64,000 nt of DNA from Wickerhamiella versatilis (lineage: Eukaryota), in assembly GCA_030867685.1 (NCBI GenBank), contig JAQOWU010000007.1:868001-932000 (forward strand), given 5' to 3'. The notes beneath the pieces are model-generated. The model did not search any database. It had not been told where the DNA came from and saw nothing but the letters and a program-made list of their open reading frames with translations. Both the position numbers and the translations under genes were made by a program. Each line of letters opens with the position of its first letter. The first letter of the stretch is position 1. Of this stretch, positions 2,975 to 50,532 are shown in pieces.

Positions 2975-3067
2975 TTTTAGTCTTTTGCTTAAAAAATTAA
3001 ATAAAGCTCATCTGGAATAGACAGCCATACGCCCTAACCCATAAACTTTCACGAGATACATGCATTA

Positions 3068-5440
3068 ATGAATTTGCCTGATCTCGCTGCGGCCGTAAAG
3101 GACCTGCAGTTAGAGGTCTCTGAGTTACGTTCCGAAGTGAGCGAGCTCCGAGGGCTCGAACCGCATTCGAGCCCCAGTGACTCTAGCTTATTGCGGCGAG
3201 TCGGCACTCGGATGCATCGGATGCTGGATTCGGCATCCTCCAATACACCTTCAATGCATCGTAGGCTAGATTCGGCATCCAGTACACCTTCAAGTTCCCC
3301 GACCCAAGCTCCAGGGCCGTTGACTATCAGGAGAAACTCGAGTCTGAGTCGGTTAGCTCCATTTGACGATGAGGTCGTCGAAATTCCAGAATCTCTACGT
3401 AAAGGAATGCCTTTCCTCAAGGTGACACACAGAAAAAGAGTACCGCGTAAGCTCTACTTAGATGAGGAAGCTGGTGAGCTACGCTGGTCCTCGAAGTCGT
3501 CAGCCAAACTTCTCGTGGATAACATAGTTGAAATACGCGGTGGGGCTGATGCACGAACTTATCGCGAAGAACTAAGAGTGAGTAGTGATCTTGAGTCGCG
3601 TTGGATCACAATTGTTCATCGTCATGTTCATGCTGGTTTCCGGCTGCGAGTGCTTCACCTCGTCGTGGGGTCGCAGTCTGATTTCGACGAACTATTCATA
3701 TGCCTATTACGTCTTGTAAAGTACCGACGTGAGCTTATGAGCGGCCTCGGGATGGCTGGTCCAAGGTTTATAGATACCCATTGGGAGCGCTCGGCGTCTA
3801 ATCAATCGCCAAATGCTCGTCTGTCCTTTGAACAGGTGGTTCGATTTGCTCGCCAATTGCATGTACATTGTGAGGAGGAATATCTCAAACGATTATTTTA
3901 TCAGGCAGATCTTGACAGAGATGATGCACTTTCGTTTATTGAATTCAAAACCTTTGTCTATCTTCTAAAACAACGCTCGGACATATCATCTTTGTACCAG
4001 GAATTCAATGGCGATTGGGGCTTGCTATGTCGAGATATACAGGGCGAGACAGATGCAAAAGTGGGTAATATTGTGAGTGAGGATCGTTTTGGAGAGCTGC
4101 TTCTTGCCCAGCCGACTCATCAAGATCCAGAGGAAGAACAAGATTTGACCAGACCTCTCAATGAGTATTTTATCTCCTCCTCCCACAACACGTATCTTGT
4201 AGGGCGTCAGGTTGTTGATTCTTCCAGTATCGAGACATGTGTGAGAGCCCTCCAAGATGGTTGTCGTTGCATAGAGCTTGATTGCTGGGATGGACCTACC
4301 GAGCCTTTAGTCTACCATGGTCATGGTCTCACTAGGCTTACGGGCTCGCTTGTCTTCCGTGACGTTATAATGGCTGTTCTCAAATATGGGTTCATTTCGT
4401 CAGCTTACCCTCTCATTATCTCTTTAGAAGTTCGTTGTGGAGATGCATGTCAGCTCCGTATTCGCAAAATACTTGAGGAGGTGCTAGGTGATCACCTTGT
4501 AACAGCACCCATCGATGATCGGAAGAACAACACTCTCCCAAGTCCTTCTGAATTAAAACATAGGGTTTTGATTAAAGTCAAATCGACGGAGGATTCAGCT
4601 GGGCTAGAAGATATCAATGTGAGCGATGAAAGCACAGGTTCCTCCAATAGTCTTTCCCCACAGGTTTCGCCGAAAAAGACGCATATTATACCTGAACTTG
4701 CTGAACTGGGAGTATACCTTTCAGGGCGGCGCTTCAAGACCTTCAATGACTCTTATCGTTTGAATACATGTTTTTCATTCTCCGAGCGAACTGCAAGGCG
4801 ACTCAATAGTGAGCAACTGAAACGTCTCACTGAGTTATACATGGTGCGTGTTTATCCTGCAGCATACCGCTTGAACTCGTCGAATTTTGATCCCGGGCCT
4901 TTTTGGCGCCTTGGATTGCAGATGGTTGCCCTCAACTGGCAACGGAGTGATGATGGCATAGCTCTAAATCGTGCATACTTCAGTCCCAAAGTCGGATATG
5001 TTCTGAAACCGTACTGGTTGCGTCCTAATGGGCCGGATCCACCAAATGCAGTCATAAAAAGAGTTTCTGTAACCATCATATCGGCACAACAACTGCCACG
5101 ACCAAGGGAGCTACGAACATCTGAAACCTTTGCCCCATATGTCACAGTATACGCTCTAGGGCTAAGTGATGGTGGCCTTATTCCACAGTGGCGTACCAAT
5201 GCGATACCAAAAAATGGCTTTAATCCAAGATGGGACGCCAAGATTGAGTTCACCTGCTCAGAAAGCGATCTAAATTTTGCATGTTTGAAGTTCGTCATAT
5301 CATCAGGAGATATCTCCTTTGCATTTTATACTACGCGCATAGCAACACTCTTGCCTGGATACCGCCATTTACAACTCCAAGACAGCCGTGGAGAGGATTA
5401 TATTTTCTCCACGCTATTCATTCGAAATGAGATAACGTAG
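3068..5440 (+). CDS. PLC1: phosphoinositide-specific phospholipase C
   Basis: PH and EF-hand region, X-box YFISSSHNTYL...GCRCIELDCWDG, Y-box RVYP...SSNFDP...QMVALNWQ, C2 domain. Confidence 0.95.
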   Translation: MNLPDLAAAVKDLQLEVSELRSEVSELRGLEPHSSPSDSSLLRRVGTRMHRMLDSASSNTPSMHRRLDSASSTPSSSPTQAPGPLTIRRNSSLSRLAPFDDEVVEIPESLRKGMPFLKVTHRKRVPRKLYLDEEAGELRWSSKSSAKLLVDNIVEIRGGADARTYREELRVSSDLESRWITIVHRHVHAGFRLRVLHLVVGSQSDFDELFICLLRLVKYRRELMSGLGMAGPRFIDTHWERSASNQSPNARLSFEQVVRFARQLHVHCEEEYLKRLFYQADLDRDDALSFIEFKTFVYLLKQRSDISSLYQEFNGDWGLLCRDIQGETDAKVGNIVSEDRFGELLLAQPTHQDPEEEQDLTRPLNEYFISSSHNTYLVGRQVVDSSSIETCVRALQDGCRCIELDCWDGPTEPLVYHGHGLTRLTGSLVFRDVIMAVLKYGFISSAYPLIISLEVRCGDACQLRIRKILEEVLGDHLVTAPIDDRKNNTLPSPSELKHRVLIKVKSTEDSAGLEDINVSDESTGSSNSLSPQVSPKKTHIIPELAELGVYLSGRRFKTFNDSYRLNTCFSFSERTARRLNSEQLKRLTELYMVRVYPAAYRLNSSNFDPGPFWRLGLQMVALNWQRSDDGIALNRAYFSPKVGYVLKPYWLRPNGPDPPNAVIKRVSVTIISAQQLPRPRELRTSETFAPYVTVYALGLSDGGLIPQWRTNAIPKNGFNPRWDAKIEFTCSESDLNFACLKFVISSGDISFAFYTTRIATLLPGYRHLQLQDSRGEDYIFSTLFIRNEIT
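3212..3292 (+). repeat. imperfect tandem duplication (42 + 39 bp) in the PLC1 N-terminus
   Basis: atgcatcggatgctggattcggcatcctccaatacaccttca followed by atgcatcgtaggctagattcggcatccagtacaccttca. Confidence 0.85.
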
Positions 5441-5483
5441 TGCTTATGATTTATATTTCCAATTCTATCTATATATGACAAAT

Positions 5484-6548
5484 TTATAGCTTTGAAGGCA
5501 ACCAGTCAATATAGCCGGTCCTTCCACCCTTGTACCATATTTTGCTTGTGTTTGGAGTTAACTCAATGCTATTCTTGAGACGTTTGACAAGGTCCGGGTT
5601 TGAGATAAACGGTCTTCCGAAGGCAATCCCGTCCGCCTCTCCTGTCTCGACGACTTTCATGGCCATATCACGAGAATAGTCCTGGTTCAGGATTAGAGGC
5701 CTGCTAAATACCTCGCGGATTTCCTTGTGCAGTTTTGGCTGAGTGGTTTTGCCAAATGTTCCATTCACACCGGGTTCACGTAGCTCGAGCCAAGCTACGC
5801 CTGCCTCTTGTAGGAATTTTGCTGCCGGAACAAAGACTTTTTCAGGATGTTCTGAATACGTTTTCTGTGTGTCACCATTTGGTGATAGTCTCACACCAAC
5901 CTGAGCAGCACCAATAGAGTTTATTAGTTCCAACGTCACTTCCCGCAAGAACTTAAGCCGGTCCGTGCCGTACACATCGGTGCGATGATTCGTGGAATCC
6001 TTCATAAATTCATCCACAAGGTATCCATTAGCAGCATGGAGCTGAATTCCATCGAATCCAGCCCTGATAGCATTTTTTGCCGCCTTACCATAATCCTCTA
6101 CGACACGCTGAATCTCCGCGTGCGTAAGTGCTTTCGGTGTTTCGGCTGGAAGCTTACCATCATATGTATGGAACAATCCGCCATGACTTATGGCACTGGG
6201 TGCCACAATTTGCCTTCCCGATACGTTTGAATGGGCCATGCGGCCCATATGCCAAAGTTGAGCTACAATCTTACCCCCATTTGCATGAACTGCCTTTGTC
6301 ACCTTCTGCCAACCTGCAACTTGTTCATCATTCCACAGTCCAGGTGTGAAAGGCCAGCCATGACCTTCATTACTTATAGCGGTAGCCTCACTTATGATCA
6401 GACCAGCACTTGACCTCTGGACATAGTACTTAACCATATCATCCGTCGGAACTCCATCTCTTCCTGCTCGTCCTCTCGTTAGAGGTGCCATAAATATACG
6501 ATTGGCACATTCAATAGAGCCTAATTTAATGGGTTCGAATAGAGACAT
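5484..6548 (-). CDS. Old Yellow Enzyme family FMN-dependent ene-reductase, bacterial (NCR/NemA-like) type, with C-terminal SKL
   Basis: True start is probably ATG 6548 (MSLFEPIKLG). Motifs NRIFMAPLTRGRA, GLIISEAT, QLWHMGR, GFDGIQLHAANGYL, FGRPFISNPDL; 354 aa. Confidence 0.95.
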   Translation of the reverse strand: MSLFEPIKLGSIECANRIFMAPLTRGRAGRDGVPTDDMVKYYVQRSSAGLIISEATAISNEGHGWPFTPGLWNDEQVAGWQKVTKAVHANGGKIVAQLWHMGRMAHSNVSGRQIVAPSAISHGGLFHTYDGKLPAETPKALTHAEIQRVVEDYGKAAKNAIRAGFDGIQLHAANGYLVDEFMKDSTNHRTDVYGTDRLKFLREVTLELINSIGAAQVGVRLSPNGDTQKTYSEHPEKVFVPAAKFLQEAGVAWLELREPGVNGTFGKTTQPKLHKEIREVFSRPLILNQDYSRDMAMKVVETGEADGIAFGRPFISNPDLVKRLKNSIELTPNTSKIWYKGGRTGYIDWLPSKL

Positions 6549-6610
6549 CGGTAGGTCGGAGAGGTTTCCCCACTTTTTAGAATTGATTATGTTAGCGACT
6601 GATCTATAAA

Positions 6611-7936
6611 TTAAGCTTGCATTCCTTGCTCGGGCACACGGGGTGAGCCGGCCAGCAGCTCTCGTCTTATCTCCTGGGATATCTGAGGGTGCTGCTGGAG
6701 GCGGCAAACTGCCAAAAGTGCATCTCGTTGATCGTCAGTGATATCATTTTTGTAGCGCTGGGCAAACGTTAGGAAGCTCTGATGCCAAATTACAGGCAGG
6801 GCACGGTCGTGCTCGCGAAATCGTACAAAGTGGAAGACCATGGCATCAACAACCTTGAATGGTAATGCATACTTTTTGTCAAGCAAAACACGTATGAAAA
6901 GAGAATGGGGTCCACTGTAGTCCTCTATTTCTGCAATGTGCAACAGGGCAGCGGCTGAATGCAATGCAGGGATACTTACCCGAGCGAGTATAGAACCGGC
7001 CACAACGGCCTCTCGCAGGGTGCATCCTCCACCCTCTTCCAGTAAGGGGAACAAAAAGCCCTTGAAGAACGCGGCTGGCTTGTACAGGGCCTTTTTCAAC
7101 GCACGGTAGACGTGATAATTCACAGCGTGCTCGGGCCCCCTCACCTGTTCGTGGAATCTATCTAATAATACTTCCTCGATGAATCGATGTGCCTGATTAG
7201 AAGGAAGATTGGAAACGAATAGTTTTGTAGCTTCATAGACGGCCTGGTTTGACCACGACTCGGGACCGGTAACATAAAGTACGTCACGCCAGTTCCTTAG
7301 GCTAGGAACGATCTTGAAGGCTCGAGGTAGACGGCCACTACGATATCGGCTCAGCAGCTCACCTACCTGCGTATAAACATCAATAACTTTAGGCGGAAGC
7401 CGCACACCACCGCTTTCAGCCCCCGGTGGCTGCCAAACGCCAGCCTTCTTGGCCTTGTGCTCAGCGATTTTGGCCATGATCCGATCTGCCAGATTGATGG
7501 GCTCACCGTCCTCGTTTAGTCCCCCTGCGTACCTTTCAAAAACTGCCTCCTCCTCAGGATCGACCTCATAGTGAACGACTTCATCATACTCTTCCTGGTC
7601 TGCTTCAGAGTCGCTTTCTCCCTCTGTAACCCATTGTTCTTCGTCTTCATCAACAAGCTCCTCCGTCCTGGAAGGCATACGAATTTCATTACGCTCCTGC
7701 TCTGCGGACTCTTCAGCAGCCATTTCATCCTGTTGTGAGCGTGCAAGATCCAGAATTTTTCGTGTTGCCTGCGGCGACACATATTCCTCATCAGCATCGG
7801 CATCGATATCGACATCGTCGGTGTCTACATTTTCATTAGCACGCTTGTGTCTAGGGTGCGAGCGGAGATGCCCTTTACTTTCCTCAATGGACTTATAAAG
7901 GGGATCCTGCTTGCGTGCTTTAACGACTTTGGGCAT
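6611..7936 (-). CDS. ENP1: bystin, 40S biogenesis factor
   Basis: LPPKVIDVYTQVGELLSRYRSGRLPRAFK, ALKKALYKPAAFFKG, LDKKYALP, HPQISQEIRREL. Confidence 0.96.
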   Translation of the reverse strand: MPKVVKARKQDPLYKSIEESKGHLRSHPRHKRANENVDTDDVDIDADADEEYVSPQATRKILDLARSQQDEMAAEESAEQERNEIRMPSRTEELVDEDEEQWVTEGESDSEADQEEYDEVVHYEVDPEEEAVFERYAGGLNEDGEPINLADRIMAKIAEHKAKKAGVWQPPGAESGGVRLPPKVIDVYTQVGELLSRYRSGRLPRAFKIVPSLRNWRDVLYVTGPESWSNQAVYEATKLFVSNLPSNQAHRFIEEVLLDRFHEQVRGPEHAVNYHVYRALKKALYKPAAFFKGFLFPLLEEGGGCTLREAVVAGSILARVSIPALHSAAALLHIAEIEDYSGPHSLFIRVLLDKKYALPFKVVDAMVFHFVRFREHDRALPVIWHQSFLTFAQRYKNDITDDQRDALLAVCRLQQHPQISQEIRRELLAGSPRVPEQGMQA

Positions 7937-7997
7937 GTATGAACTTACTTAATTTTTTTCCACTGTTGAAATTCAGCCAGCTAGCTGAGTCATCCAT

Positions 7998-9356
7998 ATG
8001 TCTTTCAAGCGCGGGCGAGAGGAAGATATCAATCCTCCCAAACGTACACGCCGTGCTCTAAATGATCTTAAATCTTTACCAACAGAGAAGCTTCGCGTCT
8101 TCATGTTTGGTTCGAGCGCGCTGTGTGAGTTGGGACTTGGTCCACGTGTAACGGAAGTCAAGCGACCTCGACTCAACCCATTGCTCCCAGTAGACGATGT
8201 GGGAATAGTGGCAGTGGCAACTGGTGGTGCCCACTCTTTAGCCATTGACCATTTGGGCTCTGTGTGGAGCTGGGGCCAGAATGACTGTGGTGCTTTGGGC
8301 AGACCCACCAAGGAGGGCCCTGATGAAATCGACGAGGATAATGATCTGAATGCCAAGGAATCTACACCTGCGCGTGTACAGGGACTGCCTGAACACTTAA
8401 AGTTTGTTGCCATAGGTGCAACTGATAACTGCAGCGTCGCCATCACTGAACAGGGTCGCGTGTGGGCCTGGGGTACATTCATTGATGATGGAAATAAAGC
8501 TTTTGCCCCGGGTGTCAAATTCCAGCGGGAACCAGTCCAGCTCCAGACTCCCCGCAATGTCATTGCAGTCGCTGCTGGAAGAGATCACTTGCTGTTTGTC
8601 AACACGAATGGCCAAGTGTATGCGTGGGGAGTGGGCTCGAGCAACCAGCTGGGTGTCAGGGTCAATCCTTACCTGCGTACGCATACTGTGGGTCCTGTTC
8701 GTGTACCTATCCTTAAGAACATTATCAATGTATTTGCCGGTGACTACCAGAGTTTTGCATTGGATGCACATGGCAATCTGTGGGCATGGGGGTTGAACAA
8801 CTTTGGCCAGCTTGGTATTCCTGAGCCGGTCGGTGCCAATGTTGTCATTGAAAAGCCCATGCAGGTCCCTCAGTTCTGGCCAGAGGGCCAGCGTATCGTA
8901 CAAGTCGCATCAGGATCGCACCACACTGCGTTCCTTACCTCGGAAGGCGAACTTTGGACGGTTGGTGAGACCAATTTCCACCAGCTCGGTATTCCCTACG
9001 ATGAGTCCCTACCGAAAAACACTGTCCGGGAGCAGGACGGTACTCCATCTTATGTGCCGAATGCGGTGCGCGTTAGAAAAGGGAAGAACGAGGATGATAT
9101 TGTGGACTTGCCACCTATGAAGTTCATCGCTGCAGGAACTGATCACACCGTAGCACTTTCAAAGGTCGATGGGACTGCGTGGACCTGGGGCTTCGGAGAG
9201 ATGTACCAGCTTGGACACGGCAAACCTGCTGGAGAGGATGAGCCAGAGGATGAGCAATACCCTCGTCGCATCAAAAACACTGCCACTACTGATGTTAACA
9301 TGTGTTGGGCAGGTGCAGGAGGCCAGTTTTGTGTTATCGCGGCACACACTGCCTAA
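7998..9356 (+). CDS. SRM1: RCC1-repeat Ran guanine nucleotide exchange factor
   Basis: ELGLGP...VKRPRLNPLL, repeated GxxH...VWSWG.N..G.LG units, C-terminal GAGGQF. Confidence 0.88.
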   Translation: MSFKRGREEDINPPKRTRRALNDLKSLPTEKLRVFMFGSSALCELGLGPRVTEVKRPRLNPLLPVDDVGIVAVATGGAHSLAIDHLGSVWSWGQNDCGALGRPTKEGPDEIDEDNDLNAKESTPARVQGLPEHLKFVAIGATDNCSVAITEQGRVWAWGTFIDDGNKAFAPGVKFQREPVQLQTPRNVIAVAAGRDHLLFVNTNGQVYAWGVGSSNQLGVRVNPYLRTHTVGPVRVPILKNIINVFAGDYQSFALDAHGNLWAWGLNNFGQLGIPEPVGANVVIEKPMQVPQFWPEGQRIVQVASGSHHTAFLTSEGELWTVGETNFHQLGIPYDESLPKNTVREQDGTPSYVPNAVRVRKGKNEDDIVDLPPMKFIAAGTDHTVALSKVDGTAWTWGFGEMYQLGHGKPAGEDEPEDEQYPRRIKNTATTDVNMCWAGAGGQFCVIAAHTA

Positions 9357-9435
9357 ACTAAAATTAAAACCAGCCGCTACATGGCCTTTTATCCTGTATA
9401 TTATCGCTATAAAAAGTTTTTTAAGTTGTTCAAGT

Positions 9436-49383: not shown

Positions 49384-50532
49384 TCAAAGCTTGGACGAAA
49401 AAAGTTCGACTGCCATCTTGAGAGAGGCATCCATCTCTGAATGCAAAATCTGTGCCAAATAATCCCTTAGTTTCTGGCGCACTTCTAATGAGCGGGGTCG
49501 GCGGCCATAGAGGTTAACCATTAGTTTGAAAGCATCGGGGAATTCTGAGGAATTAATATCAACATAACGAATTGGCAGCACAATGCTGAGAAATACAAAT
49601 TCATCACTATCGGGATAAGCGGTCAGGGCATGCTTGATCACATGGTCTACTAAATACTGACGATCCAGCGCGGTGAATTCGTCCAAGACTTGTATGGCCT
49701 TGATAGGAAATTCCAGGCCAAATCTGGGAGCCGCCGCATCGTAAACTGCTAGAGCCACATCACCACGCAGAGCGGGATTAGATTGGACGTCACCCAGCAC
49801 TTCGATATTAATGTCAGGGAGGTTGCTCAGCTCTGTCTCAGCCGCCTGGATATCCACATTGCTCAGCTCTGTTCTTTCTGCATTCTGTTCATTGGACTCC
49901 GCTTTCTGGGCCACATCCAGTCCTAGCAACTTTCTTCTTGCCAAAATCTTAGCGACATATATAAGTTCAAGACGCATGTATTCAAGCCACAGGTACTCGG
50001 AGCGAGGATTAAGCCTTAATCCTCGTTGAAGCACTGCACGAGCCTCAACGATTGCGGAATTTTCCTCAGCTTGGTATTTTGCTACATATACCCAGACCTC
50101 CGGCTTAGTTGGGTGTAGTCGTAGCATCGATGTGAGCGCACGATTTACCACCTGAGGTGAATTATTTTTATGCCCATAATCAACTGTAGCGATCCAGAGA
50201 CTCAATTCGGCAGGAAACCGACGGGTGGCTCTACTAAATATGAACTGAATCCGCTGCTTCCCAGCCCAATCAGATATGCCCTTGCCTTCAAGTTTATGCT
50301 GCTTTCTCAGGCGTCGTACTCGCAGGTGTCGCAAGCGATCAAGCTGCTGCTCGTAGGTAGTATATGCAAGAAAGTCACTGGGCTTCACCGACCGAGCCAG
50401 AAGTTTATGCTCATAATCGGTGCGACGTTTCACTATTTTTGAAAGCTCATCCTTGTCGAATATTCCACGTTTTTTCAGGTCCTCGACCTCCTTGATGGAG
50501 CTCTCCAAGTAGTAGCGGACCTTGTCAGACAT
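49384..50532 (-). CDS. UTP6: U3 snoRNP HAT-repeat protein
   Basis: MSDKVRYYLE...RRTDYEHKL, ISDWAG..RI.FIF.RA, LWLEYMRLELIY. Confidence 0.92.
   Translation of the reverse strand: MSDKVRYYLESSIKEVEDLKKRGIFDKDELSKIVKRRTDYEHKLLARSVKPSDFLAYTTYEQQLDRLRHLRVRRLRKQHKLEGKGISDWAGKQRIQFIFSRATRRFPAELSLWIATVDYGHKNNSPQVVNRALTSMLRLHPTKPEVWVYVAKYQAEENSAIVEARAVLQRGLRLNPRSEYLWLEYMRLELIYVAKILARRKLLGLDVAQKAESNEQNAERTELSNVDIQAAETELSNLPDINIEVLGDVQSNPALRGDVALAVYDAAAPRFGLEFPIKAIQVLDEFTALDRQYLVDHVIKHALTAYPDSDEFVFLSIVLPIRYVDINSSEFPDAFKLMVNLYGRRPRSLEVRQKLRDYLAQILHSEMDASLKMAVELFSSKL

Follow-up and report, generated by a model that had tools for sequence, protein, structure and literature searches.

A 64,000-nucleotide stretch of the Wickerhamiella versatilis genome, referred to here as the window, carries an expressed old yellow enzyme (OYE) gene of bacterial origin that was duplicated in the yeast lineage. 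Only one of the two resulting lineages changed its tail to end in SKL; its catalytic residues are intact, and the genome encodes peroxisomal import machinery. SKL is the prototypical PTS1 and is bound by Pex5. We consider it probable that the SKL copy is imported via Pex5 and acts as an NAD(P)H ene-reductase in the peroxisome, perhaps with a second location, and that its paralogue is cytosolic. Retargeting after transfer had been proposed in a sequence-only reading of this DNA. The gain of SKL after transfer stands, but the tag came with a duplication that this reading had not seen, and the tail that carries it is short.

Table 1. Features of the OYE locus and of a second candidate xenolog. 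Positions refer to the window unless a contig is named.
Feature	Position	Strand	Basis or remark
OYE gene, intronless open reading frame, 354 aa	5484..6548	-	Class I (GluER/NemA-like) old yellow enzyme, bacterial origin
Putative PTS1, C-terminal S-K-L of OYE	5487..5495	-	Translation and homologue comparison
OYE remodelled C-terminal arm, residues 330-349	5502..5561	-	Basic, not acidic; holds active-site W338/Y339
OYE catalytic motif H171-x-x-N174-x-Y176, intact	6021..6038	-	Corresponds to GluER H172/Y177
OYE three-residue deletion site (Y-G-T-D-R loop)	5964..5975	-	Common to all yeast copies
OYE transcript 5' ends, in the 62-bp gap below ENP1	6578..6589	-	Template-switch adaptor tails, three RNA runs
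PLC1, native neighbour, convergent with OYE	3068..5440	+	PI-PLC-X, PI-PLC-Y and C2 domains
ENP1/bystin, native neighbour, upstream of OYE on the same strand	6611..7936	-	PF05291
Beta-hydroxyacid dehydrogenase, 298 aa, ends KKKLESKL	contig C3:238453-239349	-	

On its sequence and predicted fold, the protein is assigned to the FMN-dependent, TIM-barrel class I OYEs. It matched PF00724 (E 9e-77), its best PDB matches were 3WJS, 6O08 and 6MYW (E ~1e-140), and it was 62-63% identical to Acetobacter alkene reductases. The AlphaFold2 model (pLDDT 93.8) reached a TM of 0.98 to GluER. Over the last three C-terminal blocks the pLDDT drops to 75, 73 and 54, leaving the tail as a low-confidence coil, which would fit a free signal. 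The FMN-lining residues T24, Q97, R220 and R312, presumably FMN contacts, are intact, and the H-x-x-N-x-Y motif is invariant in all yeast copies and in 150 of 150 bacterial-type rows of the alignment (GluER numbering follows the available text of PMC13339135). The enzyme is close kin of GluER, a widely engineered biocatalyst; plant OPR3 gave a far weaker match (E 2.5e-67 versus 1e-140). We class it as NemA-like in its predicted function but outside the curated NemA subfamily, and it fell below the NCBIfam NemA cut-off (NF007899) with 302 versus 403 bits.

GluER of Gluconobacter (6O08, 6MYW, 3WJS), Zymomonas NCR (4A3U) and the Acetobacter alkene reductases, at 57-63% identity and a TM of 0.98, have T24, W65, W99, H171, N174, Y176, Q228, F265, W338 and Y339 in common with the yeast enzyme. 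These bacterial proteins nevertheless lack SKL and have an acidic C-terminal arm and an invariant GYxDY, whereas the yeast copies are missing three loop residues and the SKL copy carries R199K, G229K, A68T, T337I and Y349W at near-invariant sites.

Translation of the minus-strand frame confirmed that the protein ends GYIDWLPSKL-stop, as had been read from the DNA, with the stop and the last eight codons at 5484-5510. The gene has a GC content of 0.47, like its neighbours. Four RNA runs labelled with the same species were mapped on window positions 3000-9400; OYE was expressed in all four, at a summed depth of ~40-115-fold, with no splice joints over the gene in any of them. Adaptor-marked 5' ends lie 30-41 bases upstream of the start codon, and read ends pile up at 5467, 17 bases beyond the stop, which fits an mRNA 3' end. 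Because the RNA covers the gene without joints and ends just past the stop, SKL is encoded in the message and stands at the true C-terminus of the expressed protein. Alternative splicing that would remove SKL was rejected in view of the lack of joints, and contamination was ruled out by the native flanks, the GC content and the unbroken RNA coverage.

The same RNA runs gave two further observations. Adaptor-marked 5' ends on the plus strand lie at 6589-6594 (32, 32 and 15 reads at 6594 in three runs) and RNA depth is raised over 6638-7279, which together suggest that the OYE promoter also gives rise to a divergent transcript, which would run antisense to the 3' half of ENP1 (6589-7280). At position 6072, an extra T in a T run occurs in ~8-14% of reads in three of the four runs (5/66, 7/49, 12/93 and 0/37) and may reflect slippage or a low-frequency frameshift allele.

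The bacterial origin suspected from the DNA agrees with our comparisons and is already in print. The available part of Goncalves 2018 (PMC5897096, Fig. 2 source data 4) lists an 'alkene reductase (OYE)', K10680, with an Acetobacteraceae donor, in ten copies across six Wickerhamiella/Starmerella species. Brito 2026 (PMC13376923, Supplementary Data 6, likewise in part) reports a bacterial nemA gene adjoining bystin in W. versatilis at 20-107 TPM, together with a second, near-silent nemA gene. We classify OYE as a bacterial xenolog in a yeast genome, flanked by native PLC1 and ENP1. Its bacterial origin in Wickerhamiella/Starmerella yeasts is therefore published, and the duplication followed the transfer.

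Evidence for that order comes from the yeast copies themselves. Among the 11 OYE-like matches in the genome, OYE is 36-39% identical to the others, except for a 69% identical paralogue on contig C8 that ends DYPEAK. Databases yielded four yeast-type clusters, namely OYE itself, an 84% identical orthologue with the tail DWPSKL, and two clusters that lack SKL and terminate in PEAK or PEAE; a profile search for further yeast orthologues returned nothing beyond them. Each of the 11 yeast-type rows carries a three-residue loop deletion that is seen in none of the 150 others (48 with a bacterial name by the author's count, the rest unnamed), nor in any of 54 metagenomic OYE frames scored from the best 80 metagenome loci. 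In a 53-row tree the yeast-type rows formed one clade (99/97), divided into SKL (100/99) and non-SKL (100/99) groups, and this division held in a 30-row tree built without the C-terminal arm and five distant OYEs. With outgroups, the yeast clade stood beside, not inside, the 42 bacterial rows, a placement that carries a long-branch warning; in the 30-row tree it fell beside an unnamed row. The shared deletion and the strongly supported clade argue for one transfer followed by duplication. Records for both the 84% OYE orthologue and an 83% UTP6 orthologue name two contigs, of which the longer measures 82,445 bases, and this suggests that the OYE orthologue occupies the same chromosomal region in the sister species.

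Other OYE relatives in the genome have histories of their own. A copy near a contig end (contig C7:6131-7201) sits on a long branch apart from the native copies and the xenolog pair and is possibly a separate transfer. OYE domains are also fused to a luciferase-like monooxygenase in proteins of 802, 802 and 782 aa (contigs C1, C8 and C7), and a diverged OYE domain is fused to an FMO-like monooxygenase (740 aa, contig C1:1102853-1106563), with a truncated copy of 163 aa in a similar neighbourhood elsewhere.

The expectation that the nearest bacterial homologues would lack the signal was borne out, with SKL or a close variant at the C-terminus of 0 of 150 bacterial-type homologues and 0 of 51 complete metagenomic OYE frames from the best 80 metagenome loci. 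Conservation among yeasts proved to be partial: the single orthologue that we found, from a sister species (84%), also ends in PSKL, whereas the paralogue lineage ends PEAK or PEAE (2/2 versus 0/2 clusters). The tag is thus known from two species, in a comparison set separate from the other Wickerhamiella/Starmerella copies in print; this narrow range weighs against the import reading, as does the good conservation of the paralogue's own tail. The ancestral tail most often has the form anchor-P-x-x-x, which 64 of 150 rows show, and in these 64 rows with a same-length tail the commonest last three residues are L/F, A and R. From this ancestral form, SKL would have been gained by replacing three residues. 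The W. versatilis tail has one extra spacer residue relative to the sister-species orthologue.

Change also extends into the preceding arm, which we regard as the strongest of the new evidence. Over residues 330-349 the SKL copy is 30% identical to Acetobacter, compared with 53-75% in other segments, whereas the paralogue retains 60%; between the two SKL species the arm is 90% identical, against 80-88% in other segments. A stem change was scored where both SKL sequences carry the same new residue and the paralogues retain the bacterial consensus, with two sequences per stem. On the SKL stem these fall at 7 of 20 arm positions versus 12 of 328 elsewhere (Fisher p=2e-5), for an interval that was picked after viewing the alignment and is also the top-scoring 20-residue window. 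The excess persisted at stricter cut-offs (p=0.003 and 0.03 when conservation in 50% or 80% of bacterial rows was required). The paralogue stem shows 0 of 20 changes in the arm versus 21 of 328 elsewhere, and the paralogue is altered at other sites (Q228F, T128V, G26A). Net charge over residues 333-349 is +2 in the SKL copy, -2 or -3 in the paralogues, and zero or below in 150 of 150 bacterial-type rows. The GYxDY tyrosine, invariant in the same 150 rows, is Trp349 in the SKL copy.

The available text of PMC5476825 reports that upstream basic residues favour PTS1 import in yeast and that the residues next to the tripeptide matter most. The charge near SKL is -1 over the six adjacent residues, which speaks against import, and +1 over 12, but two of the three clear peroxisomal matches from the genome survey below are also at 0 or -1 over the adjacent six. 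A burst of change in the arm, followed by conservation and accompanied by a basic shift, would fit selection for Pex5 recognition. Since the arm holds the active-site residues W338 and Y339, a substrate shift could explain part of the remodelling.

To place the SKL end against chance, we estimated its probability from how often S, K and L occur in the 41 open reading frames of at least 150 aa in the window. The result, 3.9e-4 per gene, corresponds to ~2 chance SKL ends per genome by a rough gene-count estimate. All 60 SKL-stop sites on contig C1 were read, and two of them end a real gene versus ~0.24 expected. The survey as a whole covered 149 of roughly 400 sites (60 on C1, 38 on C3-C7, and the rest of 67 genome-wide TCN-AAG-CTN-TRA sites), and is biased outside C1 to TCN-AAG-CTN codons and misses spliced signals. 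Nine surveyed sites end frames of at least 100 codons. One of 248 codons was excluded, being the antisense shadow of a gene that resembles aldehyde dehydrogenases, and a 99-codon frame with no Pfam match fell under the 100-codon cut.

Besides OYE, seven SKL genes remained. Three have peroxisomal 2,4-dienoyl-CoA reductase, Lpx1 and oxalate-CoA ligase as their best PDB matches, the last of which we take to be yeast Pcs60. Two more encode a 3-hydroxyacyl-CoA dehydrogenase (contig C8:4429217-4431217) and a 441-aa trypsin-like protease (contig C1:227533-229533), families that presumably have peroxisomal members, and the final two are UTP6 and the second xenolog described below. An SKL end in this genome therefore appears usually, but not always, to mark peroxisomal cargo.

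UTP6 (49384-50532, minus strand) provides a useful control. The caution that this gene in the window also ends in SKL was correct. Of the 13 closest sequences, counting UTP6 itself, 9 have a PTS1-like end, compared with 0 of 97 more distant ones; the nearest named relatives are Sugiyamaella and Trichomonascus. In the sister species the UTP6 end is ARL, whereas the SKL of OYE is unchanged there. The PTS1-like end of this nucleolar protein is probably a helix end, and it may be a conserved silent signal or mark a dual location. Because UTP6 keeps PTS1-like ends, conservation alone is no proof of a targeting function.

The genome encodes the components that import would call on, including a 600-aa PEX5 with four WxxxF motifs and PEX14, and it holds two acyl-CoA oxidases and a catalase. 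OYE has no N-terminal extension beyond the bacterial start; an apparent extension of one OYE variant, which likewise keeps SKL, was discarded, since it probably stems from a start called at GTG and does not represent a true leader. The sequence of events that we favour begins with a single acquisition of an FMN-dependent ene-reductase from an Acetobacteraceae-type bacterium and its duplication in the yeast lineage. The paralogue with the PEAK/PEAE tail would have stayed cytosolic. In the SKL copy, replacement of the last three residues by SKL and rebuilding of the preceding 20 residues would let Pex5 bind the folded enzyme and carry it into the peroxisome, probably with a cytosolic remainder, given the short tail. 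There, beside beta-oxidation and catalase, it would most likely catalyse NAD(P)H-dependent reduction of activated C=C bonds in enals, enones or quinones arising from lipid oxidation or degraded plant compounds.

The length of the tail weighs against this proposal. Only five residues follow the GYxD[YW] anchor in OYE and four in the orthologue, compared with nine in OPR3 (chain 1q45), which leaves a spacer of just 1-2 residues between the folded core and SKL. The available text of PMC545800 describes DHFR with a bare SKL that binds Pex5 as a peptide and is not imported; together with this precedent, the short tail counts against import. Predicted complexes of the Pex5 TPR domain, made without use of the alignment, scored 0.48 with OYE and 0.01, 0.52 and 0.39 with the controls, values that we weigh on neither side.

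A related arrangement exists in plants, where the OYE family likewise has peroxisomal and cytosolic paralogues. OPR3, which serves jasmonate synthesis, is peroxisomal and OPR1/2 are cytosolic, and plant peroxisomes can host a functional bacterial OYE to which SKL was added by engineering (bioRxiv 2026.05.27.728186, available portion). OPR3 differs in belonging to a native plant lineage, in its longer tail and in its known substrate, whereas the yeast signal arose by substitution on a transferred bacterial gene.

Three other explanations were weighed against import of a retargeted ene-reductase. If SKL lies too near the barrel for Pex5, the enzyme would be cytosolic, with its arm rebuilt for a new substrate or partner and SKL a tolerated by-product. 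Such a silent signal is in keeping with the short tail after the anchor, with the UTP6 control, with the ~2 chance SKL ends expected per genome, with the active-site residues in the arm, and with DHFR-SKL and the other silent PTS1s described in the available text of PMC545800. We nevertheless judge it unlikely, though far from negligible. All three last residues differ from the EAK or EAE of the paralogues and from the commonest bacterial ones and spell an exact canonical signal, which is unchanged in the sister species where UTP6 ends ARL. In addition, the charge shift runs in the direction that favours PTS1, and the tail has one more spacer residue than in the sister species. Far less plausible is that the two yeast copies came by separate transfers and that an unsampled bacterium donated a gene already equipped with SKL or the rebuilt arm. 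In favour of this, the yeast clade sits beside the bacterial rows under a long-branch warning, and some prokaryotic proteins have PTS1-like ends (PMC545800, available portion), but the three-residue deletion (11 of 11 yeast-type rows versus 0 of 150 others), the strongly supported single clade and the absence of SKL from 150 rows and 51 complete metagenomic frames all argue against this scenario, which we regard as very improbable.

The remaining explanation shares the peroxisomal location with the one we prefer and differs in the job. Instead of reducing a specific alkene, the enzyme would serve mainly as a redox valve or NAD(P)H oxidase, reoxidising NADH from beta-oxidation with oxygen and releasing H2O2 beside catalase. 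OYEs have an oxidase side activity, the closest PDB entry (3WJS) is labelled NADH oxidase, and the genome has only two malate dehydrogenases, neither with a reading frame that ends in PTS1. This role is doubtful, since the enzyme retains H171, N174 and Y176, its residues for alkene reduction, and the non-mitochondrial malate dehydrogenase carries a putative 52-base intron over its stop codon, with a consensus donor and branch site (minus strand, contig C8 near 1759500). Splicing of this intron would give SKL and thus probably a cryptic peroxisomal isoform, with the normal shuttle in place. Because malate dehydrogenase can gain SKL in this way, the case for NADH cycling as a substitute for a lost shuttle is weakened, and loss of the peroxisomal malate shuttle as the cause of retargeting was set aside on the same grounds.

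The bacterial genes of these yeasts number in the hundreds, and earlier work on them dealt with their origin, expression and chromosomal place. For the published OYE xenolog family of this clade, the available portions of PMC5897096 and PMC13376923 describe no targeting signal or paralogue split, and the string 'peroxisom' is absent from the main texts of PMC5897096, PMC13376923 and PMC12461148 and from 11 searched supplement files of PMC13376923. A search lying mostly outside the subscription literature found no publication on an OYE targeting signal in these yeasts. According to the available text of PMC3915301, 3 of 424 fungal OYEs are predicted to be peroxisomal. Gabaldon and Pittis 2015 (PMC4678951) describe how, after duplication, one paralogue changes compartment via few changes in a short signal. 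In its available portion that account concerns native genes ('horizontal' occurs 0 times), whereas the history of OYE begins with a transfer between domains. The arrival of bacterial genes in these yeasts and a change of compartment after duplication are thus each known; for their combination in this gene we found no printed record. A transferred, duplicated and organelle-addressed enzyme would be direct evidence of integration into eukaryotic cell organisation, and the paralogue pair poses the standing question of whether SKL is sufficient or the fold must release the signal. If import fails, OYE reduces to a known xenolog of the ordinary sort whose signal is silent.

A second gene raises the question of whether OYE is a single case. 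The beta-hydroxyacid dehydrogenase on contig C3 has a best match among cluster representatives at 67% identity, which clusters with a Vibrio protein, and its bacterial counterpart ends four residues earlier. The KKKLESKL end is kept in three of three members of its cluster, with a PTS1-like end in 0 of 150 relatives; a GTDB scan gave weak matches only. The available part of PMC13376923 reports three bacterial xenologs of the beta-hydroxyacid dehydrogenase family in W. versatilis. This protein is a probable second xenolog with a PTS1, gained in this case by extension. Two SKL xenologs are too few to show enrichment, and we advance only tentatively, with some doubt, the idea that the yeast lineage repeatedly re-addressed bacterial oxidoreductases to the peroxisome, by substitution and arm rebuilding in OYE and by a short basic extension in the dehydrogenase. 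If true, the peroxisome of these yeasts would draw part of its redox toolkit from bacteria, and the two OYE copies, as a natural pair of cytosolic and peroxisomal paralogues, would reveal which changes beyond SKL make a bacterial enzyme Pex5 cargo.

Among other proteins of the genome, an isocitrate-dehydrogenase-family protein ends AANL and a typical catalase ends TERL, both of which are possibly weak, non-canonical PTS1 variants.
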